The position numbers and the translations under genes were made by a program. This document shows, piece after piece, positions 916 through 36,041 of a stretch of 64,000 nucleotides of DNA (its first letter is position 1; each line of letters starts with the position of its first letter). The notes under the pieces were generated by a model. It was not told the origin of the DNA. It ran no database searches and saw nothing but the letters and a program-made list of their open reading frames with translations. Where the stretch lies: the IMG/VR virus record IMGVR_UViG_649633094_000002; one strand, 5' to 3'. Source of the DNA: an uncultured virus (IMG/VR IMGVR_UViG_649633094_000002). Lineage: Duplodnaviria > Heunggongvirae > Uroviricota > Caudoviricetes.

Positions 916-1931
916 CGATTCCCATACATCTTCTCGTAGTAGTTCTGATACTCACCGGAGATGATGTCCTTCCACCATTTTTCGTTGTCGAGATACCACC
1001 TTATCGTCTTCTTGATGCCGTCTGCGAACTTTGTCTCAGGCAACCAACCGAGTTCGTTGTGGATCTTTGTCGGATCAATAGCATAACGCATATCGTGGCC
1101 TTTACGATCGGTAACATATGTGATAAGGCTCTCAGGCTTACCGAGTTCCTTGCAGATAAGTTTAACGATGTCAATATTTCTCATTTCGTTGTGACCGCCG
1201 ACATTGTATACCTCGCCGACTCTGCCTTTGTGTATTATGAGATCGATAGCACGGCAGTGATCCTCGACATACAGCCAGTCACGAACATTCTCACCCTTGC
1301 CGTAAACAGGGAGAGGCTTGTCTGCGAGCGCATTTGCTATCATCAGTGGGATCAGCTTCTCTGGAAAGTGGTAAGGTCCGTAGTTATTGGAGCAGCGCGA
1401 AATTGTCACAGGGAGGCCATAAGTCCTATGGTAAGCCATAACAAGCAGGTCAGCACCAGCTTTTGAAGAACTGTAAGGGCTGCTTGTGTGGATAGGTGTA
1501 GTCTCTGTAAAGAAGAGGTCGGGACGGTCAAGCGGAAGGTCGCCGTAAACCTCGTCGGTACTTACCTGATGATATCTCTGAATACCGTACTTTCTGCAAG
1601 CGTCCATGAGGACCTGTGTACCGAGAATATTAGTCTGGAGGAATATCTCAGGATTCTCGATAGAGCGGTCAACGTGTGACTCTGCTGCGAAGTTTACTAC
1701 GATATCAGGCTTTTCTTCCTCAAAAAGCTTGTAGATAGCCTCTCTGTCACAGATATCAATCTTGCAAAAACGGAAATTCGGGTTATCCATTACACTTTCA
1801 AGTGTGCTGAGATTTCCTGCGTATGTGAGCTTGTCCACGCATACTATCCTGTAATCAGAATATGTGTCAAGCATATGGAATACAAAATTTGAACCTATAA
1901 AGCCGGCTCCGCCTGTTACGATTATAGTCAT
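912..1931 (-). CDS. rfbB: dTDP-glucose 4,6-dehydratase
   Basis: [41 protein letters not shown] motifs; AAGGAG RBS. Confidence 0.97.
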
Positions 1932-17964: not shown

Positions 17965-20900
17965 TCAGCGTTTTGGCTTCTTCGCTACCGGCTTTTTCTG
18001 TTCCTCCTGTTCCTGCTTGTGCTCACGTTCGGGAGCCTTGAAGGATCTGAGTTCCTTGAAACCAAAAGTATCCACATAGTAAGCCTTTCCCTTTGCGACA
18101 ACAACATCTGATACAGACAAGCTGTGTCCTTTGAAGTCCGCAGGGTGGTCAACATTGAATTTTGTATAGACGGCTTCAAGCTGCCTGCCTATGGTATCCC
18201 CCGTCTTTTCAAAAGGAGAATAGTCGCCCTCATACACCTTGTCATAGGTCGAAATGTCGGGCTTCTTCCCCTGTTCCGCAAGCCGTTCCAGGCTGATGAA
18301 GCGCATATCGCGGGTATCATCACCGCCTTTGAGCTGATAGATCTCGAATGTAGGCTTGTCCTGTGAGGGAATAGGCTGTGTAGGCGAAGCGATAGCAGCT
18401 TTCAGCGCGTCATTACAAGCGAAGTAGTCGCCATAGCACAATACGCCGGTCTGATTGTAGTTTCCATCGTTATTATCGAGGGTGTACTTCACAAGCATAT
18501 GCGTAGTATCGGGCTTATCGTCGCACTTTTCTATGCGGTACTGATTTGGTGCAAGCCCCTGTGACGGATCATACATACGGGCTGATATTTCGTCGATAGT
18601 CTGCGGGTGCATAAGCTCAACGTGAGCCTCGCCCTTACGCTTTTCATACACTTCCATAAGTGCTTCTTTTGCATCGGGTACTGACGATATGCCGTCCTTT
18701 ACGACAGTTACAATACCGTCAGCAGCAATGCCCACAACAGCATACTTGCCGTTGTTGTTCTGACGTACCCCGTAATACTCGGTCGGAAAATCGGCTGTCC
18801 CAGCGGTGTCTATCCTATGCTCATACGCCGCCTTGAAACGCTCAAATTCCTCCTTGTTTTCGGGGGCGTATGTTTTCTCTGAGAGCATATCATAGACCTC
18901 GGGTGTCATATCGCCTGTCCCTGGCATACCGTTTGCATCAATGTAATGTGCGTTTATCTTAGTGACCTTTTTGTAGAAGTCGGCAGCGGGCAGACCGCTT
19001 TCTTTCTGCTCACGATCGTATGCGTCATTGTCCAGCCAGCCAATGCCCTCAACAAAATATTCATCGGCAGAAGTATTGTAATACTTGGTTTCGGGGATAC
19101 CCCTGAAATCGTCCGAGATAGACACCTTTTCCACCGCAAGCAGGTACTTGTCCTTGAAAAAGTCAGGAAGCTCCTTCTTTTCTTCAACAACAGCGTGTTC
19201 TCTCTGTAAATGGAATTTCTTGTCGATCAATTCCTCAAAAAGATGGTTCATGATGACGGGGTGTGTTTCCGTGAGATATTTCAGCCTTGTTTTGTCGCTG
19301 TCAAACATATACTGCCGCGCCATATCCTTGACCTCATTTGTAAAACGTCCGTCCTGCATTTTTAGCTGTATCGTCGCAGCGACCGTATACATAGCACGTT
19401 CGATACCAAACTTGTCCGTGAGGGTCTGAACGAACCCCGACAGGTTTCTGTTCTCATACGCGGAGTGGATATTCTGCTCAATGTAGTCACGGCAAGCCTG
19501 CGAAGCCTTTATGCTTGCTTGCAGATCTGAGATCCGCCCATTCATTTTCGCATCCATGTAGGACTCCACCACGACAGGAACGGACTTGTAATCAAAAACA
19601 GCATTTGACCGCGGCGGCATATCCGAGAGCGTATCAAAAAGCGCATCGGGAATAGTGCCGCCCTGTCTTGGGATATTATCGAAATCTCCCGTGAATGGAC
19701 GAGCGTTTCCGAAGCCGCCTCTGTCAGCATAAGCCGGTGCGCCGTATGCCGGCTGATTGTTCTGCTGATAATTATTCTGGTTATTGGTGCGGCTGTTCTG
19801 AGAATACATCTGCTTTACCTCAGCGACCGCCGCTTCATAGCGAGGAATATCAGCCTTGTTTATGGTTATCGTGGTCGTATATCCTTTACGCAAACCGCTG
19901 AACCTAACGCCGTACTCATTCAACTTCTGTGCGATATTATCGGCGTGACGATTTTTCAGCTTCGGATAATACTGTAAATCGGTTTTCTGTCCCAACTGGT
20001 CATAGGGTGTGTTGCCGATGACATTCGGATTGCTCTGCTGCGGCTGTGCCGGCTGATTATTGTAGCCATTCTGCTGAAACGCCCCCTGCTGTCTGCCGCT
20101 CGTCATATTACCGAGCCTTTGCAGCAGCACATTAGCTTCACCGGATACCTGTGCATCACCTACAGTGCTTACGACCTTACTCAGAAAAGTATTTATGCTC
20201 TGAACATCGCCATTGGCGATATTATTCGCAACACTTTGTATACCGCGCTCACGGTCGCCTGCAACATTGCGGTATCCGTTTGTGTTGTAGTTATACATAA
20301 ATGCTTCGATGTCACGCGCAAGCATATCGGGACTGTCATTATTCTGCTGATAACCGCCGCCCTGCCTGCTGTTGTTACGCTGATCGTACATCTGCTTGAC
20401 CTTATCGACCGCCGCTTCGTAGCGAGGAATATCCGCTGAATTTATGGTAATCGTAGTAGTGCCGCCCTTTATCACGCCGCTGTATCTGATACCGTCCGCA
20501 TCGAGCTGGCGAGCGATATTCTGAGCGTGTTTATTGTTCAGCCCCTTGTAATACTGGAGCTGTCCCCTGCCGCCAAGCTGATCGTAAGGCGTGTTGCCGA
20601 TAATGTTACTGTTCCTCTGCTGATAGCCGCCCTGCTGCGGAAAATTTCTCTGATTGTAGCTATCATAAAACTGCTGATTTCTCACGTTTCCTAAACCTCC
20701 CTTGTCGAAATCAAGTTCCGCCGAATACTGATACTCGCTTAATGCTATGTTTGCCGTGTCGGGAGCATTACGCACCTCGTCTATGCTTGTCGCCTGTTTT
20801 CCTTCGATGAAAACATCAAGACCCCTGCCCCACATTTCAATAGCTTCCGCTTTCGATACGGGGTACAAATCGGGGTTATCCTCGGCAGCAACAATGCGCT

Positions 20901-22239
20901 TCGGCTCTTTTTCAATACCGTACAGACCGGAGAAGTTTTCAATCTCCTCACGGCTTTCAGCCATGCCCTCTGTACCGTCTGGATACAAAAGATAGACTGC
21001 TTCACCCCTATCATAAGCGGCGAGGGCCTCCTCAGTTGTATCAATAGGGTTCATATACTGAAAGTCGTAGCCGTAGCTATTGCGCTGATTTATCGTGTTG
21101 GCGGTATCATCGATAGTTTTGAACACCGATCCGATATCCGTTTCATTTTCAGCCAGCTCCATGATTTTTGCGGTGTCGCTGTCCTCAAAAACAACTCCGT
21201 TCTGCTGAACTATATCGAGATACATTTCCGCCTTCTGAACATTTGATAATTCGGTATCGTCCATAATTTCGTTGACCGTCAGATCACGCTTTTTGTATTT
21301 CAGAAGTTCCGAGTCAATAGCCGTGAAAAGTGTCTGCGATGTTTTCTGAATTTCATCAAGAAACTTGTTCAGTTGGTCAAGCTGTTTTCCCTCCGACCAT
21401 GAAGCAATATACGGGAAAGAATAGTCCGAAGTGTTAACCCCCAGCTTCTCGCAGACGATAAATGCAATTGATTCCGCCTGCACCTCTTTTTCATTTCGTG
21501 GTGATTTGGTCGTAACGATCTTTTTATCGGGATCGTGCAGCAGACAGTGAGCAGATTCGTGAACGACAGTCTTTAGCACCTGCTCGCCGCTCATACCTGT
21601 CTTTATTATAATACTTTTTGCCGAGGGACTGTAGTATCCTTTTGCGCCTCCGGTTATGGTGCGATACTCAGGTGCAATCCCCGTTGCTTTCTTTATCCCC
21701 TTGAAAATAACGTTCAGCTTTTCTTCGTCTATCTCGCCCACAAGCTCCTGAACAGGGTCAGGGATTGGCTTTCCGTCCGTCTGCGAAAGGTCGAAAACAT
21801 ACTGTTTCTTGAACCGCATTTCAACAATGTTCTTTTCCACCGTTTCCATCTGTTCGGTGCCGTCATCGTTATACAGTTTATTTCCCCACTCGTCCTCCGC
21901 CTGACGTTCTATCTCTACAAACTGATTAGTTTTATGGGGAACGGGCGACATTATGATAATGCCGCTTTCTCCTTTGTTGACAGAGCGACCAAGTTTCTTC
22001 CACAGCCCGAACGAACCCACAAGAGTCGCGTCCGGGCGCTGTAAATTGATAAGCATCGTATTTCTCGCAGAGTAGTCAGTGAACTTCGACACGAATTTCA
22101 GATACTCCTTGTACTTCTCCGATGAAAATACTGCGTGCACACCGTTATCAATACGCTTGAATATATCCTGCATTTCCTGTTGCAGCCTTCGCTGATACTC
22201 GGCACGTTCCTCGGGGGTAAAACTCTTTTTCCAAGCCAT
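17965..22239 (-). CDS. Polyvalent protein: ArdC-like ssDNA-binding domain, HExxH metallopeptidase-like domain, duplicated ~75-aa module, DUF3849-like and YodL-like domains
   Basis: YSARNTMLI..QRPDAT.VGSF..WKKLGRSV.KGE; VVHESAH; EVQAESIAF; C-terminal FEIYQLK...HPADFKGHSLSVSDVV...YYVDTFGF. Confidence 0.85.
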   Translation of the reverse strand: MAWKKSFTPEERAEYQRRLQQEMQDIFKRIDNGVHAVFSSEKYKEYLKFVSKFTDYSARNTMLINLQRPDATLVGSFGLWKKLGRSVNKGESGIIIMSPVPHKTNQFVEIERQAEDEWGNKLYNDDGTEQMETVEKNIVEMRFKKQYVFDLSQTDGKPIPDPVQELVGEIDEEKLNVIFKGIKKATGIAPEYRTITGGAKGYYSPSAKSIIIKTGMSGEQVLKTVVHESAHCLLHDPDKKIVTTKSPRNEKEVQAESIAFIVCEKLGVNTSDYSFPYIASWSEGKQLDQLNKFLDEIQKTSQTLFTAIDSELLKYKKRDLTVNEIMDDTELSNVQKAEMYLDIVQQNGVVFEDSDTAKIMELAENETDIGSVFKTIDDTANTINQRNSYGYDFQYMNPIDTTEEALAAYDRGEAVYLLYPDGTEGMAESREEIENFSGLYGIEKEPKRIVAAEDNPDLYPVSKAEAIEMWGRGLDVFIEGKQATSIDEVRNAPDTANIALSEYQYSAELDFDKGGLGNVRNQQFYDSYNQRNFPQQGGYQQRNSNIIGNTPYDQLGGRGQLQYYKGLNNKHAQNIARQLDADGIRYSGVIKGGTTTITINSADIPRYEAAVDKVKQMYDQRNNSRQGGGYQQNNDSPDMLARDIEAFMYNYNTNGYRNVAGDRERGIQSVANNIANGDVQSINTFLSKVVSTVGDAQVSGEANVLLQRLGNMTSGRQQGAFQQNGYNNQPAQPQQSNPNVIGNTPYDQLGQKTDLQYYPKLKNRHADNIAQKLNEYGVRFSGLRKGYTTTITINKADIPRYEAAVAEVKQMYSQNSRTNNQNNYQQNNQPAYGAPAYADRGGFGNARPFTGDFDNIPRQGGTIPDALFDTLSDMPPRSNAVFDYKSVPVVVESYMDAKMNGRISDLQASIKASQACRDYIEQNIHSAYENRNLSGFVQTLTDKFGIERAMYTVAATIQLKMQDGRFTNEVKDMARQYMFDSDKTRLKYLTETHPVIMNHLFEELIDKKFHLQREHAVVEEKKELPDFFKDKYLLAVEKVSISDDFRGIPETKYYNTSADEYFVEGIGWLDNDAYDREQKESGLPAADFYKKVTKINAHYIDANGMPGTGDMTPEVYDMLSEKTYAPENKEEFERFKAAYEHRIDTAGTADFPTEYYGVRQNNNGKYAVVGIAADGIVTVVKDGISSVPDAKEALMEVYEKRKGEAHVELMHPQTIDEISARMYDPSQGLAPNQYRIEKCDDKPDTTHMLVKYTLDNNDGNYNQTGVLCYGDYFACNDALKAAIASPTQPIPSQDKPTFEIYQLKGGDDTRDMRFISLERLAEQGKKPDISTYDKVYEGDYSPFEKTGDTIGRQLEAVYTKFNVDHPADFKGHSLSVSDVVVAKGKAYYVDTFGFKELRSFKAPEREHKQEQEEQKKPVAKKPKR

Positions 22240-22772: not shown

Positions 22773-23888
22773 TCATCTCCCTCTGTGTTTTGCAGGCTTT
22801 GGTATTCCGGGCTTGTCTGCGATGACCTTGCTTTCGGAAAGCTCCTGCTTCTGTTTCTGTTCCATCATCTGCTTTACCGCCTGCGCCGTTCTAAGCCTGT
22901 ATGCCGTGTCCTCAATAGCAGTATCTATCTCGGCAACTCCGTGAAGCTGGGTCATCGTGTCCCACTCCTGGTAAATTTCATCAAGAACGTTATCCGTATC
23001 AAGCAAAACTTGCAAATCATCGGGGCTTAATGAAGTCATATTAGTGTTGCAAAAATCAACAATATAGTCCTTGTTGTAGATCTCATACGCCGACTTGATT
23101 ATCCTATCCGGGTCGCCCTGCTTCAGTTCAGCTATATATTTTTCATACTCCCCCGCCACCTTATCCGCAAGTTTTGACATTCCTTTATTTACCTGAAAAT
23201 CGGAATACTTCTGGTCGAGGATATACGGTGTGAGCTTTTCTATGTTTTCACCCATACTGCTTTTCAGGTATTCGCTGAACTGTAACCAGTCGGGCTGCTC
23301 GATTATCTTGAATATTGCCGCCGCCAGCCGATGATCGTCAAATCTCATGCGGTCGCCCTCGGCAAGTGCAGCATCAATATCTTTGAAGGTGGATAAATGC
23401 TCTCCCGAATATTCAGAGGTCAGCGTCATACCAAGTGCCGCCATTTCACGGGCAAGTCCGGGGTCAAGAAATAACCCCTTATCGCCAGCGTAATATGCTC
23501 CCGATTTTACAAACTCCGCAAGCTCACGGTAGGTCTTTTGAGTATCATTTTCCGCTACAAAAAGATTTACCGCAGTTCTTCTCGGAAGCTCTCTGTCAAT
23601 GGATTCGAGAAAGGCACCGAGGTCACGCTCATTGCGGTTGGAATTGACCGAGCTGTGCGCTATCTGCATCACATCAAAATTATCTATCAGCCTTGTGTCG
23701 CAGGCGTGTATCAGCTCATCAACTGTTCTGGGGCTGTACCGTGTGCTCGCAAAAACAACGGCGGTCGGGGCATAGGAAGAAATAAAGTCGAGCGTTCTGT
23801 CGGAATAATTCATCTCTAAGACTTTTGCGAACATATACGGATCAAGCAGGTTGGAAAGCTGTTTCAGATTGTCATCTCTGCTGTTCAT
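22773..23888 (-). CDS. Tandem paralogue 4, C-terminal DUF3848-like domain
   Basis: KSGAY motif; KVAGEYEKYIAEL...IIKSAYEI...LLDTDNVLDEIYQEW. Confidence 0.75.
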   Translation of the reverse strand: MNSRDDNLKQLSNLLDPYMFAKVLEMNYSDRTLDFISSYAPTAVVFASTRYSPRTVDELIHACDTRLIDNFDVMQIAHSSVNSNRNERDLGAFLESIDRELPRRTAVNLFVAENDTQKTYRELAEFVKSGAYYAGDKGLFLDPGLAREMAALGMTLTSEYSGEHLSTFKDIDAALAEGDRMRFDDHRLAAAIFKIIEQPDWLQFSEYLKSSMGENIEKLTPYILDQKYSDFQVNKGMSKLADKVAGEYEKYIAELKQGDPDRIIKSAYEIYNKDYIVDFCNTNMTSLSPDDLQVLLDTDNVLDEIYQEWDTMTQLHGVAEIDTAIEDTAYRLRTAQAVKQMMEQKQKQELSESKVIADKPGIPKPAKHRGR

Positions 23889-24979
23889 CTTGCTCCCCCT
23901 TTCTTTTTCGGCAGCTGCGGTTTATCCGCAAGTATATCTTCGTTTTTGGATTTTGACCTTTTCTGCTGTTCCAGAATACTGTCTGCCGCATACTCCATAG
24001 CTTTCGGAATATCGTCATAGGTTTTGAGATACTCGCGTTTCAGCCAAGCGGAATATATCTCATCAAGAGGGTTCTCGGCTGACATCAGCGCACCATACTG
24101 CTCCTCGGTAATATCCGCAGGCTCGGATTCAATATATGACTGAATGTTGGTTTTTACAGTGATCTCGTAACTGCACTTTATGGCTTCATCGACACCCTGC
24201 TCACGAATACCGTGGATAAAGGCTTCAAAGTTTCTGTCAACCTTACGGCTGAGTTCAATGTTCAGCTCCTCCACACGGTACTCCTGATAAGCTTCCACCA
24301 GTCCGTCAACGGTCATGTGTTCAATGTCCTCCATATCTTCCGCTATGTAATTACGAAAATCTTCCCAATCGGGATTGCTCCGCATTTCGTTTATCTTCAC
24401 AGCAAGTGCCGACCTTGAAAAAGTGATGCTGTCACCATCCGCAATGGTCTGCTCGATGTCTTTTACAAGATAAAAATCGTTGCTCTTGTCGTATGCGAAA
24501 AGCTCTATGCCCAGCTTGTTGATCTCACGGGCTACATCGGGATCGAGAGCAACAAAAGTGTTGTCGCCAACCTGATACGCACCCGATTTCACCATCGAAT
24601 ATATCTCATTATAGCTCCAGTCCTCGAACTTCGCCGCTACCAAAATGCGTGAAGCGGTCTGTGTGTCCAGCCCTGCGGCAATAGAAGAAAAATAGTCGTT
24701 AAAATACTTCTCACTGCCGCCGGAAACCAAGCTGTAATTTGTGATATGGAGAAGATCGCCCATAGTTATTATATTGCTGTCAAAAGCCTTGACAAGACGC
24801 TCCACACCCTCATTACTAAGTTTTGTATGCGCCAGCCTGTCGGCAAGCTCGCGGCTGTTGTTCGCCATGACCTCTAACACATAGTCGGGAAAATGATGAC
24901 TAACGATCTTTGCGTATTCCGCATTATCGACCATGTTGCACAGCTTCTCCATGCTTTCTGCTCGTGTAATATTGCTCAC
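23885..24979 (-). CDS. Tandem paralogue 3, C-terminal DUF3848-like domain
   Basis: KSGAY motif; AIKCSYEITVK...ALMSAENPLDEIYSAW. Confidence 0.75.
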   Translation of the reverse strand: MSNITRAESMEKLCNMVDNAEYAKIVSHHFPDYVLEVMANNSRELADRLAHTKLSNEGVERLVKAFDSNIITMGDLLHITNYSLVSGGSEKYFNDYFSSIAAGLDTQTASRILVAAKFEDWSYNEIYSMVKSGAYQVGDNTFVALDPDVAREINKLGIELFAYDKSNDFYLVKDIEQTIADGDSITFSRSALAVKINEMRSNPDWEDFRNYIAEDMEDIEHMTVDGLVEAYQEYRVEELNIELSRKVDRNFEAFIHGIREQGVDEAIKCSYEITVKTNIQSYIESEPADITEEQYGALMSAENPLDEIYSAWLKREYLKTYDDIPKAMEYAADSILEQQKRSKSKNEDILADKPQLPKKKGGAR

Positions 24980-26109
24980 CTCCTGAATTTCTTTCCCGGC
25001 TTGAAATGCGGCTTGTCCTGCAAATCATCAGCCATAGTTTTCTTTGCAAGCTCCGCCGCCAGCTTCCGTTCACGTTCCCGGGCAGCTATCAGCTTATCGG
25101 CGGTGTTTTCAATAATGACCTCAATATCCGTATCGGCAAAATCATCGTCGCTGCGCCACTGCTCATAGATAGCGTTCAGAGCGTTATTACTTGACATGAG
25201 TGCATCCGTTTTCTGTTCGGGTATCAGCTGCGGAACTTCCGTCATAAACATTTTTATCTGTTCCTTGATGACGATCTCATACGCCGAACCTATGATCTGT
25301 TCGGGCGGTCGTTTCTTGATATCTTCCATGAAAGCAGTATGCTCAGCCGCTACCTTGTCCACCAGCTTGTCAGCATAACGCTCCATAGAAAAATATCGGT
25401 ACTGCGCTCTGAGTTCATCGCCAGTAAGTTGTGTCCTGTCTATGCCCAGATGCTTCTGAAACCACGCTTTGAAATCGTGCCAATCGGGGTACGCCATCAT
25501 TTCATTGACAGCGACCGCCAGCTTCGGAAACTTGACAAGTTTTATTCTGTCTCCCTTTTTGACTGCTTCATCAAAATCCGATTTTTGTGTGAGATCGTAG
25601 TATGTGCCTTCTTTTCGCATAGCGGTCAAAGGCACACCGAGGTCACGAAGCTCGGCTGCCACTCCCGTATTCAGACCAATGCTTGCGAACTGCGTCGGAT
25701 AATATGCGCCGCTTTTTATAAGTGCCATAAGACCGTGATAGGTGTCAGGCTCATAGGAAGTTGCGGTGAGAATCCGTGCGGCGGTGGTATGATTTATCTC
25801 CTTCGCCCTGAGCGAGCGGATAAAATCATCAATATATTCCTCACACCCGAAATCATAGCAAGAGTATTCCATAATGTGCAGAAGATCCTTCCAGTCGAAC
25901 AGCTTATCGTCATAAGCGATTATCAGCTTTTCGATGCTCTCAACGTCAAATTTTGATTCTGCAAAACGCTCGACATAACCCCTATCAAATTCAGCCATGA
26001 CCGCAATTGCTTGGTCGGAATAATCACAAGCGATTATCCTCGCCATCTGTTCCTTTGACAGCACCTCCGCAAGACTTGCAAGGTTATCATCACGATTTGT
26101 TTGTATCAT
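24976..26109 (-). CDS. Tandem paralogue 2, C-terminal DUF3848-like domain
   Basis: KSGAY motif; KVAAEHTAF...PPEQIIGSAYEIVIKE...NALNAIYEQW. Confidence 0.75.
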   Translation of the reverse strand: MIQTNRDDNLASLAEVLSKEQMARIIACDYSDQAIAVMAEFDRGYVERFAESKFDVESIEKLIIAYDDKLFDWKDLLHIMEYSCYDFGCEEYIDDFIRSLRAKEINHTTAARILTATSYEPDTYHGLMALIKSGAYYPTQFASIGLNTGVAAELRDLGVPLTAMRKEGTYYDLTQKSDFDEAVKKGDRIKLVKFPKLAVAVNEMMAYPDWHDFKAWFQKHLGIDRTQLTGDELRAQYRYFSMERYADKLVDKVAAEHTAFMEDIKKRPPEQIIGSAYEIVIKEQIKMFMTEVPQLIPEQKTDALMSSNNALNAIYEQWRSDDDFADTDIEVIIENTADKLIAARERERKLAAELAKKTMADDLQDKPHFKPGKKFRR

Positions 26110-26839: not shown

Positions 26840-29800
26840 TCATCTCCTATTCGATTTTGTAGGTGTACTAACATTTGTTGGCGGATTTAACACTGTGACC
26901 TTCGGCTTGTAGTTCGGCATATCCGCTACCTCCTCGACTACCGACGGGATAGCGTCATCACCCTTGCCGCTGCTGAGTGCCTCATTCACTACATCGAGCC
27001 TTGCCAGCTTTTCGGCAAGTTCATCGGCTCTGTCAAAGGGCTTTGTCAAGTTCTCTTTTGCTTCGGCAAGGTTAGCCTTAGCCTTTTCAATGTCATTCTT
27101 ATACTGCACAATACGTTTTGCTATCTCGTTCGCCGCAAGGTTTTCTATACGGCGCATATTGCCCTGTTTGTTCTCAAGATTGACATCACAGGTATATTTC
27201 AACGAACCGCAAAGAGATATGACGCACGGTGCGCCCTGGTCGAAGAAAGTTAGATTTTGCGGGTTCTTTTCAAGCAGAAGATCGAAGCCGAAATAGCTGC
27301 CGACTCTCATGCTTTCTCCCGTAGTTGAAACCTTGATGATAGCCTTTTCAAGAGCTTCTCCGGCTTCATCACGAACGTGTTCACTTGTCGCTTCGGAATA
27401 AACCTTTCCGTCAATTTCTATCTGGAAAGCGGTTCCATCGGGATGATTTACGCTAAACTGTGCTATGTCGGCAGAAGCCTTTTCAAGATAAGTAGAATAC
27501 TGTTCGATACGCTGCGGCAAAGTGCGCTCCGCCTGCTCCTGATACCGATACAACGATTTCTTGTACTCCGCTTCAAGCATTTTGAGCGTTGCAACATCGT
27601 TGTCAAGCTGAATTTTCTCCTTTATCATGGGATTGCCCGAAGCGATAGCCTGCATTTCGGAGTATGTCAGCACCATCTCGTCAACGTCCTCGGATACACG
27701 AACAGGGTCTTTTGAGGTCATTATCTGATTTATGAACTTCGCCTTGTTGGTAATAATGCCCATCATGTAGGCATCGAACGTATTTTCGGTTAAATAATGA
27801 TAGATACCGACCTCCTTGAACATATTGCCCTGACGTACTCCACGACCGTCCTGCTGAGTAAGATCCGCAGGCTTCCACGGAATATCCAAGTGGTGAATAG
27901 CGCATATCCTGTCCTGAATATTTGCACCCGTGCCGAGTTTCGAGGTCGAAGCCAATATGAAACGCTTTTCGCCCTGCCGCAGCTGCTCGAACATTTCTGC
28001 TCTTGCTTTGTCGTTCTTTGCATCGCCCGCAAAACAAATCTCATCACGGGGAATGCCGCGCTTTACAAGATCGTCCTTTATAGCTTCATAAATTGAGAAA
28101 TGCTCTGCGTCCTCGTTGATAGCTATATCACAAAAGACTATCTGAACGCCCCTCTCCGCCATTGTGTTGTTATAATTCTCCACCAAAATATCCAACAGCT
28201 TATTCACCTTGCTGTCAGGTGCCGGAACTGCTTCCGGGTTCATACAGCGGCAGTCAAGACCTAAAAGACGTGCTTCGTGCGTGATGCGGAGCATATTATC
28301 CTCACGGGGATCCACGCCGCCGCAGTGTATCATTTCGGCTCGCTGTGCAAGCTGTTCCATGTACTCCTTTTGATACTCGTCGGGTTTCGCAGAAATAACG
28401 ATAGGCTTTCCGGTTTTAAGATCGGGTACAGGCAGCTTTATCATGTCGGGGGTCTGAATATCTGCAAATTCTTTGTACATCAACATCAATTCGGGGATAT
28501 TCACAAACTTTGAAAAACGGTTTTTCATCTGAAATCCGTTGCCCGCAGGCTTGATCTCCAACTGCGATACGACCTCACCGAATGTTGATGCCCAGTCATC
28601 GAATGTTTCAAGACCTGCCTTTTCTAAGAGATCGGGACGCAGGTATCTTTGCATAACATAGAACTCGACCATACTGTTCGTGCAAGGTGTTCCCGTGGCG
28701 TACAAAATGTTGTTACAGCCGTACTTGTCGTTCAGATACTGCGTTTTCATCAACATATCCTCCGACTTCTGCGCGGCAGTCGTCTGAACGCCTGCAACAT
28801 TCGACATTTTTGTTGCGACAAAGCAGTTTTTGTAGTAATGCGCCTCATCGCAGACAAGATAATCGAAACCGAGCTTTTCAAAACACAGGCTGTTATCCTT
28901 TTTAGATGACATCAGCTTTTCAAGATGCTCCTCCAGCTTCTTTTTCTGACGCTCCAGTGCCTTAACGGAAATTCTGTCAGAACTATCCACTTCTTCAAGC
29001 GCAGCCATCAGTTCATCAAGCTCGCGCTCCATAAACTGCTGCCGGTACTCGGTGGACATAGGTATTCTTTCAAACTGATTGAACGACATAATGACAGCAT
29101 CATAGTCGCCCGTGACACACCTTGCAATAAACCGCTGTCGGTTTTCCTTTGTGAAATCCTCGGGTCGGGCAACAAGCAGTTTTGCGTTAGGATACAAACG
29201 TATCCATTCGCTCGCCATCTGTAAAGTCAAGTGCTTCGGCACTACCACGCAGGCTTTTGAGATAAGACCAAGCCTTTTCTTTTCCATAGTGATAGCGACC
29301 ATTTCAAAGCTCTTTCCGGCACCAACACAGTGAGCCAAAAGCGTATTGCCGCCCAGCTTACCACGCATAATAGCATTGTTCTGATGCGGACGCATCTGTA
29401 TCGCGGGGTTCTTTCCGGGGTAGGTCTGATGTGAACCATCATACTCTCTGCCCCTGATAGCGTTGAAAAGATTATTGTATCGCTCAACATATTTTTCACG
29501 CCTATCCATATTCTCCCAAAGCCAAGTTCTGAACGCTTCCTTGATGACACGAGCCTTGTCCTTTGCAAGCTGTGTTTCCTTCGCATTGATCTCATACCAG
29601 ACTCGCCCGTCCTCCTCTCGCTTATCACGGACAACAATATCGCGCTGATTGAGCAAGTTCTCCAGAATATGATAACTGCTCATACGGCTTGTACCGTAAG
29701 TCTGCGTTGCCGCTACCGACCTGTCCTGATACCTGCCGTCGATCTTGTATTCGCCCATTCGGGTTCGGGTGATCGGGTGCGAATAAATATCTCCTTTGAG

Positions 29801-32800
29801 GACCTCCCGCATAAAACGGTTATAGTCCTCAACATCGACCCAGTTTGCACCGATCCTTACGGATATTTCCGACGCTTCGAGGTCTTTTGGAACAACCGCT
29901 TTCAGGGCTTCTACATTACGCTCAAAGCTGCTGTCGATATGCTTTGAATATTCCTCGGCAATCCTCAGCTTTTCACGGACGTTACCCGAAAGATACTCGC
30001 TTGCGTCTTCGTATCCCGAAAGAGGATCATTGTCCTTTACCTTTTGAGGATTTCTGTAAATATCCGTTCCAAGTTCCGAAATTATCTCGTCAGGCTCAAC
30101 GCCTACAAGTTCAGCCATAAATGCAATATCCACTTTACCCTTTCGGTCAATGGATATTTGCAATGCCTCCTGCGGTGTTTCGCACGATACGATTTCCACC
30201 TCCGGCATTATCGTGCGCTTTGAAAATATCTCCGCTTTCTCCACCGTCTTTTTCTCGGTGTCCACTATTTCAAGAGCCGCCAAAGTATTGTAATCATCAT
30301 CATGCTGAAATACTCTTTCGTTGGCACGGTCTGTAATTGCTCCGTATGCTCTCTTGAAGCGGTCATAGGTATAGTTGAGTTCCGCTTGCAGCTTTTTCAG
30401 TTCAGCATCATCGCAGCCCCTTGCCTGTGCATCAATTACCGCCATAGCCTTTTGACGTATCTGGTGCATACCCATCATTCTGTCGAGGGTCTTGCCGGTT
30501 TCCTGCACAGCGATCATAATCTCGTTTTCTCTGAAAAACAGCTTGCCGTTGACAACAGTGTGGGTGTAATTTCTTACGGTCGGGTCGGCGGGAATAATTT
30601 CAATATCCTTCTTGCCTTCCTCGACGATTTTCACCGTTTCGATCTTACCCTTGATTTTTGATATAGCCGCCTGTAACTGCTCGGACAGGGGCTTGCTATC
30701 GTCCGGAATACAAGTAGTGACACGGCTGTCATCGCCGTACTTACCCTTCATGCGCTCGTCCCAAGCCATAGTTCCGAGCACCATGTCAGGGTTATCGACA
30801 AAATACTGATTGCAGGGTATGCCGTCCGCTGTTTGTCCGAAATGTACCCATGAGGGTATCTCTACCGTCAGCGTTTCACGCTTCTGGAAGAACAGAATAT
30901 CCGTTGTGGTCTCCGTGCCTGCGTTCTTTTTGAAAGCATTGTTCGGCAGTCGCACTGCGCCTAAAAGGTCACAGCGTTCTGCAAGATGACGGCGAGCTTT
31001 ATCGTTTATCTTGTCCATTGTGAACTTCGATGTTACGATAGCGACCACGCCGCCGGGTTTTACTTTGTCAATGCTCTTTACGGCAAAATAGTCATGTATC
31101 TTCAAGCCGAGTTTGTCATAAGCCTTGTCAGATACCCTATAATCACCGAACGGGACGTTACCAATAACAACGTCAAATGAATTGTTATTAAATCGGGTCT
31201 TTTCAAATCCGGTGATCTGTATTCTGTCCTCGGGGTTCAGAAGCTGTGCTATTCGACCCGAAATGCTGTCCAGCTCCACACCGTACAGCTTAGAACTATC
31301 TCTTATGTCATCGGGCATTTTAGCAAAGAAATTGCCGACACCCATTGACGGTTCAAGGATATTGCCACCCTCGAAGCCGAGCTGTCTGAGAGCCTGAAAT
31401 ACGCCGTCCGTCACTTCCGGGGGCGTGTAAAAGCTTGTAAGCGTTGACTCCCTCGCCGCCTTGTATTCATCATCCGAAAGCAGCGACCGCAGCTCCTGCT
31501 GTTCCTCCTCCCAGCCCGTCGGTGCGGCATCGCCCAGGTTGCCACCGATACTGTCCGCAGCAAGATCGGTCACGAACGCTTGTGGAATACCGCCCCAGCC
31601 GACGTATCCGGCAAGTATAGACTGTTCCTCGGGCGTTGCATAGCGGTTCTCGGCTTCTATCTTTTGAAGCGTTTTTATAGCTTCGATATTTGCCTTGAAT
31701 TTCGATTTTGCGCCACCCTGAACAATATCGCCCTCGTTGAAATGGTAAGTGATAGGTGTGCCGCTTTTAGGAACTACGGGGACAGCGGTTATTCTTTCGG
31801 GCGCATTTACAGCCACCTTTTTTGGCTCTGTTTCTGTCGGTGTTTCTTCTGCTCTTTCTGCCACAGGTGCTTCATCGACCTCGGTGTAGTCAACGTCAAT
31901 AACCTCAGCGGCTTCATTAGGAAGATTTGCGAAAATATCCGCTTTCAGCTGTGCCAGTTCCCGAGGAATATCAAGGCTCACGTCCATATCGACCAGCGCC
32001 ATGAAGTGGTTGTAGTCCTCCACCTCGGCAAGTGCGTTGCTTGTTGTAGCCAGTATCTCCGCCGCAGCGGTCAGCAGGCTCATGCTTTCTTCCATCTCCC
32101 ATACGCCGCCGTCGGTAAGCGTGAGATCGGGGGCATAAACAGAATACGAAATACCCTCATCGGTCTGGTGCAGTTCTATGAATGATTCATCACGAATATC
32201 CATATATACTGCCTGCTCCTGCTCTGCCGCCTGTCCAGTTATCTCGACCGGGATACCCATATCCTGCGCCCGCTGTATGAGCTTTTCTACGGGCTTCTGC
32301 TCAACGGCAGTAACGCCCTCAGCAACGATACCCTGTTCACCAAGAAATTGAAGTGCTTCATGATAACGTCTGCGCTCGTATTCCTTTTCAAAGCTATCGT
32401 AGCTGTCCGGGTCATAGTCCTGAACTATGCGCTTGCAGTCATGAATTTTACTGTCAATATCCTTTTGAGTAATATATTTACCCTCGGATACAAGCCGTGA
32501 AATGCGCTCTACGACTTCATTCCACTTCATAAGGGTCTTAGCGTCCGGTGTGCCTATTTTTTCGCCGCGCACATAAGCGATACCCTTAGAATCGTGCCAT
32601 TCATCACCTCCGCGCCTCGAACCGCCGCCCGTGCCGTACTCATTTTTGAGGAACTTAATCTGCTCGGGCAGGGTGTGAGACTCCTTGAAGTATTTTTGTA
32701 TCCTGAACTTACCGTCCGAATAGCCACTGCCAAGTCCAAGCAGAGCGTCTTTCTCTCTTTCGGAAATGAAATAGTGACCCTTGAAAGCAAAATCGGGTTT

Positions 32801-35650
32801 TGTGACAAACTGCCTGCGCTCTATTTGTAAGTCTTTCAGACGATACAAAAGTTCTTTCGGCTTATGGAAGTGGAAACGCAGAATATCCCTGTTTTGCTCA
32901 TAATCGTTCACAAGCTGTGTAAGCCCGTCTATGTATGATTGCAGGGTATCCTTGTCCAGCAGTGCGATTTTTATTCTCTCGGTGCTTTCAGGGAAACCGC
33001 CCTTGAACATATCTTTCGGAATAAAATACTCGTAATTGTCGTAATCAATATCCTGATGCAGATACCAAAGCCTGTCGGCTATATCCTTTATCTCCTTTTC
33101 GGCTGCACCGTCAATAATATCCTGCGAACAGAACTCGCCGTTTTCAAGAAGATCATTTATACGCCTTGCGGCTATGAGCCAGGGTATCTTTGAGTTCGGG
33201 ATACCGTTTTCATCAACATTATCCCCAAGAGTTATCTTAATTCCGAAATCATCGAACCACGATGATATATGTGCTGTCTTTGAAAAATCGGGCGTATTGT
33301 AGATATATCCGCGCCCATCATTACCGAACTCCTTACGCAAAAATTCGGAGTTTTCCTCGTCCGTCTTTCCCTTTTGGAACTGTGCCACTATCCTTGAAAG
33401 CGATCCACGCTCAGGACTGCCGCAGCGAAGAACATAATATATCATGTCATTGCTTATAGCCCTGATCGACGTGTCAACATTGAGCAATTTCTTCGGTTCT
33501 TTTTCCTGCGACTTCTTCTTGGCAGTCTTTACTGGCTCCGGCTCCCCGAAGAACGAAAGCTGCTCCGCACCTTCGTTATCATCTCTGTCAAAATCATTGA
33601 CGGGCGCAGGAGTATCTATATCTTCATCGGATATTTCTTCCTCTGTTTCGTCCTCAGCTTCAAATTCCTCTGTCAGTTCCTCGAAATCGTCAATATCTTC
33701 CTCGGGCTCGGGATATTTCTTTTCTTCGGTCGGCTCTGCAAAAATCGGCTCATCTATCTCCGATACAGCGGTATTAATCAGCAGCCCGCGCTCAACCATA
33801 TCAGCATAAAAGCTCTGTACCAGATCCCAGCTAAAGCCTGACTCCATAGTGCGGGTGAGAAAACTGCCTTTCCAGATGTGGATACCCTCGTCATACGTCT
33901 TGTAGCCATAGCGAGTATCTTCGTTATCGCCCAGTAACAGTTCCGAGTAGTCGGAATTGAATATCTGCTTAACAAAAGCCACACGCTCATCATGGTCGGT
34001 GTTGTTCTCGAAAAATGCCGCTATCTGATCTCTTTTTATAGCAAAGAACTGGTCATTCCGCAGTATCCCGAAGATTATATTTTCATCGGTAATGGGCGGC
34101 AATTCAGTTGTAATAACAGCTTCGTTCTTGACGATAACTGTATCGTCCTGCGGTTGATTATCGATTATGCTTTCGACTTCTTCCTCAGTCGGTTCGGATA
34201 AATCTACTTCGGGAACTTCCTCCGGAGGGGTTATATCCTCGACTATCTCTGTCGGGAATACCGGCTCCATATTGGTCGGTATCTCTATGCCCGCATAAGG
34301 ACTTGTAGCAGGCTCGGCAACCGTCACTTCGGGCGGCTGCTCTGTTTTGACCTGCTCCTGCTCACGCATACGGAGTGCGTTTTCAATGAGGAGAATTATC
34401 TCCGCCTGCTGTCTTTCGGAATACTTGTATGCTTCGTGTTTCCTGAAAAACTCTACAATATTTACATCGGTATCAAGGAAATCCGCAAGAAAACGCCCTG
34501 CTATTTCATAGCTATCAGGGCGGCGGTTGAAGTCGCTCTGAAGATAACGCTGGATAAGGGCATCGGCTGTCAGCTTCTCAGCTGATACACTATCTCCTCC
34601 ATTATCCGGTGTTCTATCGTCAGAAGTCTTGTTTTCTCCCACGCCTGCATTTCGCTGAATGTCACGGGGCGAGGGTTCTCTTTTCGGTAGAGTGCGTCCA
34701 GCTCTTTGAAGCGGCTCTCTGCCAGTCTGTCTATCTCCCTCGGAATTATGTTCCACCTGCCCGTTACTATCAGCACCGTCACCTCGGTCGGGTACTCCGT
34801 GCGCACCCAATCCTGCCACATTCTGCCCCACCTGCCTATCGGGGTTTTCAGCAGTTCTATCTCCTGCGGATTGCCGCTGTATGCTACCTCTGCTAACATC
34901 TGTCCGGTCGGGCTTTGTCTGTAATTCATGCTCTTTTTCTCTCCTTCGTCTTAAAATCTGTATGACCTCGCGCTCTATTTCAAGCAGGCTGTCCTTAGCC
35001 GACCTCTGCACCAAATCGCAGAAGCGGATAACGTCACGGGTGTCCTTGAAATAATCAGCGGCATTGAGGTTTATGTTCCCCGAAAGCGGCATACCGCCGT
35101 TCTGCTCGCAGCGATTTGCAATTACGAAGCGAACTGCCGACACGACAGAACGCTGATAATCTGCAACAGCTTCCTGCGGCATATCTATCTGCGAAATAGT
35201 GTACTGCATTTCCGAGTTATGAGCCTTGATGTTATCCACGGCAACAGCGGCAAGAGCTTCATGAATATCTCTGCACTCCCTGCCGTATTTTTCCGAGATA
35301 ACATCAACAAGCTCTCCTGCTACATCTTCTGTCAACTGCCAGCCGTTCGGAACAGGCTTGCCGTTAGTCTGTGAGATGTCAAACAGGTGTCTGCACCTAT
35401 CACCCTCGCCGAATACTGCAATACTGTGTGCGCCCCTGTTTACAAATCTGCCGAGCTTGTTCCATGTTTCAAGCTCCGCGACTTTTGTGGCGTTAGGGTC
35501 ATGGTAGAACACAAGTGCCGCGTCGGGAAATCCCATCTTATAGAGAGAAGCCGAAAAACGCAGGAAACGAGCTAAAGTCTGCTTGTCCCGTCTTAGCCTT
35601 TCGGTCACTTCCGACCAGTTGTAGCATACGCTTTGATACCGATTATTCAA
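26840..35650 (-). CDS. Giant DNA methylase / SNF2-type helicase fusion (DarB-like), 2936 aa
   Basis: ILEPSMGVGNF SAM-binding motif, IGNVPF, LLAHCVGAGKS, DEAH, ATGTP, QQDGRGVRQGN; ArdC-like N-terminus; AAAGGAG RBS with TTG start. Confidence 0.92.
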   Translation of the reverse strand: MNNRYQSVCYNWSEVTERLRRDKQTLARFLRFSASLYKMGFPDAALVFYHDPNATKVAELETWNKLGRFVNRGAHSIAVFGEGDRCRHLFDISQTNGKPVPNGWQLTEDVAGELVDVISEKYGRECRDIHEALAAVAVDNIKAHNSEMQYTISQIDMPQEAVADYQRSVVSAVRFVIANRCEQNGGMPLSGNINLNAADYFKDTRDVIRFCDLVQRSAKDSLLEIEREVIQILRRRREKEHELQTKPDRTDVSRGSIQRQSAGDRTAENPDRQVGQNVAGLGAHGVPDRGDGADSNGQVEHNSEGDRQTGREPLQRAGRTLPKREPSPRDIQRNAGVGENKTSDDRTPDNGGDSVSAEKLTADALIQRYLQSDFNRRPDSYEIAGRFLADFLDTDVNIVEFFRKHEAYKYSERQQAEIILLIENALRMREQEQVKTEQPPEVTVAEPATSPYAGIEIPTNMEPVFPTEIVEDITPPEEVPEVDLSEPTEEEVESIIDNQPQDDTVIVKNEAVITTELPPITDENIIFGILRNDQFFAIKRDQIAAFFENNTDHDERVAFVKQIFNSDYSELLLGDNEDTRYGYKTYDEGIHIWKGSFLTRTMESGFSWDLVQSFYADMVERGLLINTAVSEIDEPIFAEPTEEKKYPEPEEDIDDFEELTEEFEAEDETEEEISDEDIDTPAPVNDFDRDDNEGAEQLSFFGEPEPVKTAKKKSQEKEPKKLLNVDTSIRAISNDMIYYVLRCGSPERGSLSRIVAQFQKGKTDEENSEFLRKEFGNDGRGYIYNTPDFSKTAHISSWFDDFGIKITLGDNVDENGIPNSKIPWLIAARRINDLLENGEFCSQDIIDGAAEKEIKDIADRLWYLHQDIDYDNYEYFIPKDMFKGGFPESTERIKIALLDKDTLQSYIDGLTQLVNDYEQNRDILRFHFHKPKELLYRLKDLQIERRQFVTKPDFAFKGHYFISEREKDALLGLGSGYSDGKFRIQKYFKESHTLPEQIKFLKNEYGTGGGSRRGGDEWHDSKGIAYVRGEKIGTPDAKTLMKWNEVVERISRLVSEGKYITQKDIDSKIHDCKRIVQDYDPDSYDSFEKEYERRRYHEALQFLGEQGIVAEGVTAVEQKPVEKLIQRAQDMGIPVEITGQAAEQEQAVYMDIRDESFIELHQTDEGISYSVYAPDLTLTDGGVWEMEESMSLLTAAAEILATTSNALAEVEDYNHFMALVDMDVSLDIPRELAQLKADIFANLPNEAAEVIDVDYTEVDEAPVAERAEETPTETEPKKVAVNAPERITAVPVVPKSGTPITYHFNEGDIVQGGAKSKFKANIEAIKTLQKIEAENRYATPEEQSILAGYVGWGGIPQAFVTDLAADSIGGNLGDAAPTGWEEEQQELRSLLSDDEYKAARESTLTSFYTPPEVTDGVFQALRQLGFEGGNILEPSMGVGNFFAKMPDDIRDSSKLYGVELDSISGRIAQLLNPEDRIQITGFEKTRFNNNSFDVVIGNVPFGDYRVSDKAYDKLGLKIHDYFAVKSIDKVKPGGVVAIVTSKFTMDKINDKARRHLAERCDLLGAVRLPNNAFKKNAGTETTTDILFFQKRETLTVEIPSWVHFGQTADGIPCNQYFVDNPDMVLGTMAWDERMKGKYGDDSRVTTCIPDDSKPLSEQLQAAISKIKGKIETVKIVEEGKKDIEIIPADPTVRNYTHTVVNGKLFFRENEIMIAVQETGKTLDRMMGMHQIRQKAMAVIDAQARGCDDAELKKLQAELNYTYDRFKRAYGAITDRANERVFQHDDDYNTLAALEIVDTEKKTVEKAEIFSKRTIMPEVEIVSCETPQEALQISIDRKGKVDIAFMAELVGVEPDEIISELGTDIYRNPQKVKDNDPLSGYEDASEYLSGNVREKLRIAEEYSKHIDSSFERNVEALKAVVPKDLEASEISVRIGANWVDVEDYNRFMREVLKGDIYSHPITRTRMGEYKIDGRYQDRSVAATQTYGTSRMSSYHILENLLNQRDIVVRDKREEDGRVWYEINAKETQLAKDKARVIKEAFRTWLWENMDRREKYVERYNNLFNAIRGREYDGSHQTYPGKNPAIQMRPHQNNAIMRGKLGGNTLLAHCVGAGKSFEMVAITMEKKRLGLISKACVVVPKHLTLQMASEWIRLYPNAKLLVARPEDFTKENRQRFIARCVTGDYDAVIMSFNQFERIPMSTEYRQQFMERELDELMAALEEVDSSDRISVKALERQKKKLEEHLEKLMSSKKDNSLCFEKLGFDYLVCDEAHYYKNCFVATKMSNVAGVQTTAAQKSEDMLMKTQYLNDKYGCNNILYATGTPCTNSMVEFYVMQRYLRPDLLEKAGLETFDDWASTFGEVVSQLEIKPAGNGFQMKNRFSKFVNIPELMLMYKEFADIQTPDMIKLPVPDLKTGKPIVISAKPDEYQKEYMEQLAQRAEMIHCGGVDPREDNMLRITHEARLLGLDCRCMNPEAVPAPDSKVNKLLDILVENYNNTMAERGVQIVFCDIAINEDAEHFSIYEAIKDDLVKRGIPRDEICFAGDAKNDKARAEMFEQLRQGEKRFILASTSKLGTGANIQDRICAIHHLDIPWKPADLTQQDGRGVRQGNMFKEVGIYHYLTENTFDAYMMGIITNKAKFINQIMTSKDPVRVSEDVDEMVLTYSEMQAIASGNPMIKEKIQLDNDVATLKMLEAEYKKSLYRYQEQAERTLPQRIEQYSTYLEKASADIAQFSVNHPDGTAFQIEIDGKVYSEATSEHVRDEAGEALEKAIIKVSTTGESMRVGSYFGFDLLLEKNPQNLTFFDQGAPCVISLCGSLKYTCDVNLENKQGNMRRIENLAANEIAKRIVQYKNDIEKAKANLAEAKENLTKPFDRADELAEKLARLDVVNEALSSGKGDDAIPSVVEEVADMPNYKPKVTVLNPPTNVSTPTKSNRR
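34570..34929 (-). CDS. TnpV-like protein nested in a different frame inside the giant helicase gene
   Basis: PIGRWGRMWQDWVRTEYP...L..TGRW.....EID..A..R...L.......M.AW......EEIVY resembles the TnpV family pattern; AAGGAG upstream of the ATG; 721 nt from the host start, so out of frame. Confidence 0.65.
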   Translation of the reverse strand: MNYRQSPTGQMLAEVAYSGNPQEIELLKTPIGRWGRMWQDWVRTEYPTEVTVLIVTGRWNIIPREIDRLAESRFKELDALYRKENPRPVTFSEMQAWEKTRLLTIEHRIMEEIVYQLRS

Positions 35651-35695
35651 TATTAGTTGTCTCCTTTCTCGCTCCTGCGCTTATATTTCAGTTAA

Positions 35696-35902
35696 TCAGG
35701 AATATATCCTGTCAAAATCGGGAATGTCGGCGCAAGTATCGCTGTCCTCATCGTACATGACACAGCGCTTGCAGCCGCCCGCCATCTCCCCGTCATTCCA
35801 GCCGTCATCGTAGCCACTGTTCTTGCCAAGCTTATAGGCTATAGTGAGCGCAGCCGTGTTTACTGCTATACAAATAAGTGTTTTTATGACATTCTTTCTC
35901 AT
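35696..35902 (-). CDS. Small membrane-anchored protein with CxxC motif
   Basis: GAGGAGG RBS, hydrophobic N-terminus, GYDDGWNDG, CKRC. Confidence 0.7.
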   Translation of the reverse strand: MRKNVIKTLICIAVNTAALTIAYKLGKNSGYDDGWNDGEMAGGCKRCVMYDEDSDTCADIPDFDRIYS

Positions 35903-35975
35903 AATATCGTCCTCCTCGAATTTTTGGTTCCCTGTATGATTTTATTATTTTCGCTGTATGATTTCCGAATACCTA

Positions 35976-36004
35976 TTGACTTAAAAAGCCTGATGAGGTA
36001 AAAT
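35976..36004 (+). promoter_or_regulatory. Promoter antisense to topB and the transfer operon
   Basis: TTGACT-17 bp-TAAAAT in an intergenic gap; CTGTATGATTT occurs twice just upstream. Confidence 0.55.
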
Positions 36005-36041
36005 AGATATGTGGGATAACGTACCCGAAGGTACATCATCA

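Follow-up and report, generated by a model that had tools for sequence, protein, structure and literature searches.

The window analysed here, a 64,000-nucleotide stretch of DNA from an uncultured virus of the Caudoviricetes (IMG/VR record IMGVR_UViG_649633094_000002), contains a giant gene of 2936 codons within which lies, wholly enclosed and on the same strand, a small open reading frame (ORF) for a protein of the TnpV family (Table 1). The small ORF is set in the +1 frame relative to its host (35650 − 34929 = 721). Our favoured reading, to which we give a probability of about 0.85, is that these 360 bases are a true dual-coding stretch, with TnpV nested in a linker of the giant gene. Selection maintains both frames, acting on the amino-acid sequence in the case of TnpV and on nothing but openness in the host frame, and the nested pair is inherited together, old and widespread.

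In mechanistic terms, a single giant-gene mRNA of a conjugative element would be read in two frames over the 360 bases. Frame 0 would yield a disordered spacer of ~120 residues that joins an ArdC-like, DNA-binding head to a methylase-like and SNF2 helicase remainder. In frame +1, ribosomes would initiate independently at an internal Shine-Dalgarno (SD) sequence and ATG to make a separate 14-kDa helical protein of the TnpV family. Nesting would also guarantee that TnpV is co-transcribed with the giant establishment/anti-restriction gene.

Two open frames across the shared bases

A scan for close relatives, restricted to a single genome of each species, found 47 loci. In 42 of them the host-type frame stays open across the TnpV match, and in most it extends ~750 nucleotides (nt) upstream and thousands of bases downstream; the other five comprise three stand-alone genes of 47% identity (L042–L044), a weak match (L047) and a broken copy (L045). 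Left out of the statistics were L009, L019, L022 and L045, which have a shortened TnpV frame, together with the partial L046, the stand-alone L042–L044 and L047, so that 38 loci and the window were retained as 37 unique ORFs. Not one of the 37 has a stop in the host frame across TnpV, and the third frame averages 11.2. Redrawing the codons synonymously with the codon usage of the host genes gave 7.3 stops and a probability of an open frame, P(open), of about 0.000, and permuting synonymous codons within each ORF left the frame open in 8.7% of cases (P 0.087).

The pattern of substitution differs between the frames. Entropy at TnpV codon positions 1, 2 and 3 is 0.61, 0.50 and 1.04, respectively, and position 3 of TnpV is position 1 of the host. 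In 66 pairs whose ArdC-like parts are at least 80% identical, the TnpV frame has a ratio of non-synonymous to synonymous change (pN/pS) of 0.28 over the shared bases, against 1.25 for the host frame and 1.15 for the third; the ArdC-like domain of the same pairs has a value of 0.13. The linker is free of indels in close relatives, and a purine-rich SD-like motif and a conserved ATG precede tnpV in all the nested ones. An earlier reading made from the sequence only had proposed a true nested gene here, and both the conservation of the ORF (host frame open in 37 of 37) and the frame-specific substitution, with a pN/pS of 0.28 for TnpV, bear this out in all the intact relatives covered.

The layout extends far beyond the close relatives. 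The ArdC-like head was searched against 401 genomes of the order and matched at 73 places in 52 genomes, mostly in ORFs of 2000–3400 codons and at 25–40% identity; 69 of the 72 places outside the window were examined, two short ORFs and one contig edge being left out. Among L051–L079, a +1-frame nested ORF directly follows the head in 28 of 29 loci, and 27 of the 28 are TnpV by Pfam (E 1e-18 to 1e-44). A profile built from those 27 ORFs found TnpV in 35 of the 40 remaining loci (L080–L119). TnpV is present in 62 of the 69 giant-gene loci and nested in all 62, and in every case the host-type frame is open for 50 codons or more ahead of TnpV and remains so past its stop. All 62 ORFs are unique; none has a stop in the host frame, and the third frame has 13.4; the synonymous redraw gave 6.35 stops and P(open) 0.0012. 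An SD-like motif stands before tnpV in 55 of the 62.

Across 98 loci, the identity of TnpV closely tracks that of the ArdC-like head (Mantel r 0.92, reached in 0 of 999 permutations), and linkage alone adds to this correlation. Between the window's clade and the canonical nested set, identity falls to ~17% in TnpV and ~23% in the head, which points to an old nested layout, and the ATG, the SD motif and the full length of TnpV are kept down to that 17%. In viral contigs, 7 loci included only 2 close relatives of the window's clade.

Seven giant-gene loci gave no TnpV match (L052, L054, L086, L097, L114, L116 and L119), and two of them, L054 and L097, are cut by contig ends. L052 (G123:C44) has a 144-residue +1-frame ORF at the usual place of TnpV (942–1373, minus strand) with no Pfam match, this being TnpV in a highly diverged form or else another embedded gene. 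L086, from the window's own genome (C1:3625429–3628429), is a 3388-codon ArdC-like giant ORF, and the window itself holds a 1424-residue protein with ArdcN, DUF3849 and YodL domains (17965..22239, minus strand) that likewise has no TnpV match. Since these two ArdC-like polyvalent genes of the same genome are without TnpV, nesting is not universal to ArdC-headed genes.

In four of the 62 nested loci (L078, L084, L102 and L053), the host ORF ends 8–143 codons past TnpV and the rest of the giant is a separate ORF. The ArdC-like head and linker then form a separate protein of ~450–540 amino acids (aa), which still fully overlaps TnpV. Because these split loci still read through TnpV, it is the tail of the ArdC-like gene that overlaps TnpV, independently of fusion. 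The sequence-only reading had supposed that TnpV was captured by a fusion of the flanking domains that read through it, an idea that fails for these four loci, where the overlap exists without the fusion; the order of the two events, overlap and fusion, cannot be told from the present data. The split forms could be natural two-gene variants or recent breaks. In L102 (G273:C10, ~1588–1590) the next ORF is in the same frame, and in L084 it is in another frame.

Stand-alone copies of TnpV provide a natural control. The Pfam TnpV model was searched against 401 genomes of the phylum, and 40 near-full-length places were taken. Of these, 17 are nested, in the same relative frame and with 0 stops, and 23 are stand-alone, with 3–13 stops in the host-type frame; there are no intermediates. 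Eight further stand-alone genes have 3–20 stops in that frame, and their neighbours include a Rep3 initiator, a serine recombinase, tet(O)-type genes and others. The stand-alone TnpV genes nearest to the window's clade (L042–L044) lie directly after a Rep3-type replication initiator on small contigs and have 19–20 stops.

Two plasmids illustrate how such loci are annotated. The Monoglobus plasmid L120 (NZ_OY725736.1) and the Cohnella plasmid L121 (NZ_CP051681.1) have 0 stops across TnpV, and their host-type frame stays open over more than 5 kb. The gene table of the former lists TnpV together with an "SNF2-related protein" coding sequence that starts ~3.1 kb (~1030 codons) into an ORF already open upstream of TnpV, and in the table of the latter TnpV is present and the giant gene is not listed. 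This looks like systematic mis-annotation of these loci, with the proviso that PLSDB tables omit pseudogenes and that the late start in a RefSeq-derived table is one example, not a rate. The expectation that annotation pipelines would discard the small gene was not borne out, as NCBI names relatives "TnpV protein" and the one RefSeq-derived table keeps TnpV and shortens the giant gene. Gene callers are forced to pick one of the two, and surveys of polyvalent anti-restriction domains, as well as counts of TnpV, are possibly distorted as a result.

The two predicted products and their genomic setting

The 119-residue product matches PF14198 (TnpV) with 31.6 bits (E 1.7e-7), above the gathering cut-off of 27 bits; the alignment spans positions 20–107 of the 111 in the profile, leaving the N-terminal 19 unmatched, and none of the NCBIfam models matched the product. 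Its length and its setting in a Bacillota mobile element fit the TnpV family (~110–125 aa), which has relatives in rumen and gut Clostridia genomes. A clustered protein collection supplied 31 homologues of 58–89% identity, nearly all of 117–121 aa; 28 bear PF14198, and three are named "TnpV protein" by NCBI. An alignment of 18 sequences has 33 invariant columns, and the AlphaFold2 model built on it is helical and confident (predicted local distance difference test, pLDDT, 89.5; predicted template modelling score, pTM, 0.74). The sequence-only reading had noted an ORF in another frame with AAGGAG upstream, a likeness to TnpV and a folded helical product. The ORF and motif were confirmed at the positions in Table 1, and the profile search and the structural model support the other two observations.

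Searches for relatives of known function returned little. Foldseek with the TnpV model gave nothing in the PDB at E ≤ 0.001, a wide search with VIA-align gave generic helical hairpins only (best Z 5.2), and the TnpV profile found nothing meaningful among PDB sequences. PHROGs returned only a family of unknown function, and a protein atlas only TnpV-like clusters. No nuclease or recombinase domain was found in TnpV with Pfam or PHROGs. These generic helical matches (Z up to 5.2) speak neither for nor against an Xis-like fold. The median isoelectric point is ~5.9 in both clades, which does not suggest a classic basic DNA binder. Upstream of the gene, the SD/ATG region is predicted to be unpaired; a consensus promoter scan gave 3 promoter-like sites against 2.5 expected, none convincingly ahead of tnpV.

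Table 1. Features of the nested locus in the window (positions of the whole stretch) and of the two plasmids with long open frames (positions of the plasmid loci)
Feature	Position	Strand	Description and basis
Nested tnpV-like gene	34570..34929	−	119 codons, ATG start (34929..34927), TGA stop (34572..34570); ORF list
Shine-Dalgarno-like AAGGAG	34941..34946	−	11 nt ahead of the tnpV ATG; in the host frame, part of RRRRE
Giant host gene	26840..35650	−	2936 codons, TTG start; ArdC-like head, linker, methylase-like and SNF2 helicase domains
ArdC-like N-terminal domain, aa 1–240	34931..35650	−	BLASTP to ArdcN-bearing neighbour; start and length kept in relatives
Host-frame linker, aa 241–361, read in two frames	34568..34930	−	Composition, low pLDDT, no stops in relatives
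Small helical host domain, ~aa 362–436, conserved DFNRR...YE.AG motif	34343..34567	−	Invariant alignment columns 365–425, pLDDT 83–88
Eco57I-type N6-adenine methylase-like stretch, aa 1480–1566	30953..31213	−	Pfam, 24.9 bits against a cut-off of 25.3
SNF2/ResIII helicase core and Helicase_C, aa 2084–2608	27827..29401	−	Pfam
Long open frame, plasmid L120	3199..>8373		
Long open frame, plasmid L121	3133..8349		

Over the same bases, the host frame reads RRRREKEHELQTKPDRTDVSRG... and is rich in G (13%), R (12%) and D (11%), as well as in Q and S. In a model of the first 450 residues of the host, aa 250–354 have pLDDT below 50 (about 30) and no secondary structure, between folded flanks of pLDDT 83–93. 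The host frame is predicted by this model to be disordered exactly across the overlap with TnpV, in agreement with its earlier description as a low-complexity linker.

The nature of the head is less certain. Residues 1–240 matched no Pfam family at E ≤ 0.01, including PF08401 (ArdC-N), nor did a PDB sequence search with the head or a Foldseek search with the 450-residue model return a match. By BLASTP the head resembles the N-terminus of the neighbour at 17965..22239 (E 4e-9, 25% identity over 133 columns), which itself scores 36 bits on PF08401. The model shows helices, four strands (E56–90) and then a helical part, with pLDDT of only 38–54 at the strands. "ArdC-like", as the N-terminus had been called from its sequence, is therefore a fair but unproven label: the similarity to the ArdcN-bearing neighbour upholds it and the Pfam search does not. 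The small helical domain after the linker has no Pfam match. Further along, Helicase_C (29.6 bits) and SNF2-rel_dom (26.8 bits) score above their cut-offs, and LPD16 (24.0 bits, cut-off 27), like the Eco57I methylase, falls just under. The host may be one of the polyvalent methylase-helicases of the class called DarB-like.

The sequence itself is sound. Single contigs from 4 runs of 4 studies cover 33500–36200 with 0 differences and 0 indels, and the identity of contigs from four runs shows that the long ORF is not an assembly artefact. The neighbouring genes encode a VirB4-like ATPase, an SpaA/thioester adhesin, a topoisomerase III and the second ArdcN polyvalent protein, and this neighbourhood points to a conjugative element. 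Directly downstream of the giant gene are three tandem paralogues of 364–377 aa (22773..26109, minus strand), each ending in DUF3848.

Two other observations concern overlapping frames. A second TnpV-like ORF in the window's own genome (L049, C2:191808–195107; 196 aa, 38% identical, at 1234..1824) is overlapped in another frame by a 247-residue ORF rich in G, S, R and E (1185..1928), with no ArdC-like head or helicase nearby; possibly this is what remains of the same two-frame module, or an orphan copy. Antisense to the dual-coding stretch are ORFs of 95 aa (34609..34896, plus strand) and 72 aa (34706..34924, plus strand). One antisense frame averages only 0.73 stops in close relatives, and this openness is probably a by-product of the codon constraints that two sense frames impose.

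Alternative explanations and possible roles of TnpV

Several points weigh against dual coding as we read it. The spacing of 11 nt between the SD-like motif and the ATG is long, and in the distant set, where the picking of starts is rough, only 34 of the 62 loci satisfy a simple SD rule. Of 45 close relatives, 4 (L009, L019, L022 and L045) have a truncated TnpV frame, although these may be decayed copies or errors in metagenome-assembled genomes. The host-frame linker peptide shows no sign of purifying selection (the pN/pS of 1.25 given above), so the role of the linker must rest on openness alone. In the closest pairs, synonymous change (pS) is lower in TnpV than in the ArdC-like part (0.22 vs 0.39), a difference that can be explained by stop avoidance alone. 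The contigs from RNA libraries are 37–67 kb long and might reflect DNA carry-over, and neither transcript ends nor transcription of the stretch can be read from them. Both TnpV and the full-length giant are translation products predicted from sequence, and neither fold nor family match assigns TnpV a function.

A +1 ribosomal frameshift near AAGGAG would fuse TnpV to the ArdC-like head, and free TnpV might or might not be made as well. Such an event would be suited by the SD-like motif and several consecutive arginine codons (AGA CGA AGG AGA) directly upstream, and by a TnpV frame that is open for 7–47 codons ahead of the ATG. However, it is the ATG and the N-terminal residues that are conserved; the TnpV-frame residues upstream of them vary between close relatives and run into stops at varying distances, 7–47 codons away. 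Stand-alone TnpV genes are of about equal length, and 137 longer candidates included no protein of more than 210 aa that carries TnpV in frame, which is weak evidence. We consider frameshifting improbable, and place at the same low level the proposal that the TnpV stretch is a selfish mobile insert that spares the host frame. Such inserts have a published analogue in the ShiLan element of phage methylase genes, with its out-of-frame HNH endonuclease (PMC11855218, in the part of the article available), TnpV genes also occur alone in other mobile elements, and 7 of the 69 related giant-gene loci gave no TnpV match. Yet two of the seven are contig-cut and L052 has a different nested ORF. Among L001–L041, no clean presence or absence of the 360 bases was found between giants with flanks more than 90% identical. 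The position is fixed, the linker lacks indels, TnpV has no detectable nuclease or recombinase domain, and it co-diverges with the ArdC-like domain (Mantel r 0.92), though some of this would follow from linkage alone.

It is less probable still that TnpV is a fossil, overrun by the giant gene, unexpressed, and conserved only through constraint on the host frame. The broken TnpV frames in 4 of 45 close relatives would be expected of a fossil, but the third position of TnpV codons, corresponding to the first in the host frame, is the most variable, and a pN/pS of 0.28 for TnpV against 1.25 for the host frame contradicts the idea, as does the retention of ATG, SD motif and full length over the deepest divergence between clades. 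Least probable of all is that the ArdC-like domain, tnpV and the methylase-helicase are three separate genes, with the long ORF open through chance or sequencing error. Some annotation tables do show only TnpV and a shortened downstream gene, but chance openness (P ~0.001 per sequence) is contradicted by 99 open frames among 99 unique nested ORFs; moreover, the sequence is identical in four independent runs, and stand-alone TnpV genes are closed in the host-type frame.

If dual coding is accepted, the role of TnpV can be approached only tentatively. Its co-occurrence with recombinases, replication initiators and giant genes suggests an accessory role in mobile DNA, and it is possible, though we would not call it likely, that TnpV is a mildly acidic accessory protein in the processing or establishment of mobile-element DNA, perhaps acting with the ArdC-like head. 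A more speculative idea, to which we attach a lower probability, is that the head and the out-of-frame TnpV make up an ancient two-in-one module, in which TnpV would be a dedicated partner of the head (for example a chaperone, adaptor or regulator) whose production within the linker would be governed by the traffic of ribosomes in the host frame. Were this so, the module would have built-in control of ratio or timing during the establishment of incoming mobile DNA, and among bacterial genes that are fully embedded it would form one of the largest and oldest families, in which the overlap would itself be functional. Any account of TnpV must explain its tie to giant genes, in which 17 of the 40 phylum-wide copies are nested. 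The layout also allows frame-specific mutations, silent in one frame but null in the other, which open the question to direct testing.

Comparison with known systems

Well-supported cases of long, same-strand, fully embedded genes are rare in bacteria, and the support here is unusually clean: both frames are retained in ~100 independent sequences, stand-alone copies act as a natural control, and substitution patterns in the two frames are opposite. Known embedded out-of-frame genes include Rz1 within Rz of phage lambda and comS within srfA-B of Bacillus subtilis. With these, the window shares a whole small gene that occupies a different frame of a larger gene on the same strand, where expression of both is expected; as in pairs of the Rz/Rz1 type, the ORF lies wholly inside its host in another frame, here +1, and both frames are maintained by selection. 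The window differs from them in that the host is a giant polyvalent gene, that the shared bases encode only a disordered spacer in the host frame, and that the pair is conserved across many genera.

The ShiLan element is a second point of reference. According to the part of PMC11855218 available, it is an actively homing insert in phage DNA methylase genes that hides an HNH endonuclease encoded out of frame. Both cases have a host frame that stays open over a stretch coding for a protein in another frame, within a DNA-modification gene carried by a mobile element. In contrast to ShiLan, TnpV bears no nuclease signature and co-diverges with its host.

The host gene fits the ArdC-N polyvalent proteins of conjugative elements as presented in the available text of PMC5512222, by virtue of its ArdC-like head, its LPD16-like and methylase-like stretches and its SNF2 helicase. 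The words "TnpV" and "overlapping" do not occur in that text of the survey, and in the literature outside subscription journals we found no description of a TnpV nested in a giant gene. For Tn4451, the available portion of PMC3158075 postulates a role of TnpV in excision from its likeness to lambda Xis. The protein in the window shares with it the PF14198 sequence family, a length of ~110–125 aa and a home in Bacillota mobile elements. Tn4451-type TnpV stands alone beside a large serine recombinase (PMC3158075, same portion), whereas that of the window is nested and belongs to a divergent rumen clade, which the window adds to the nested TnpV layout. Embedded out-of-frame genes as a kind and TnpV as a family are thus both known, and what is new is their conserved pairing with giant genes of the anti-restriction type.

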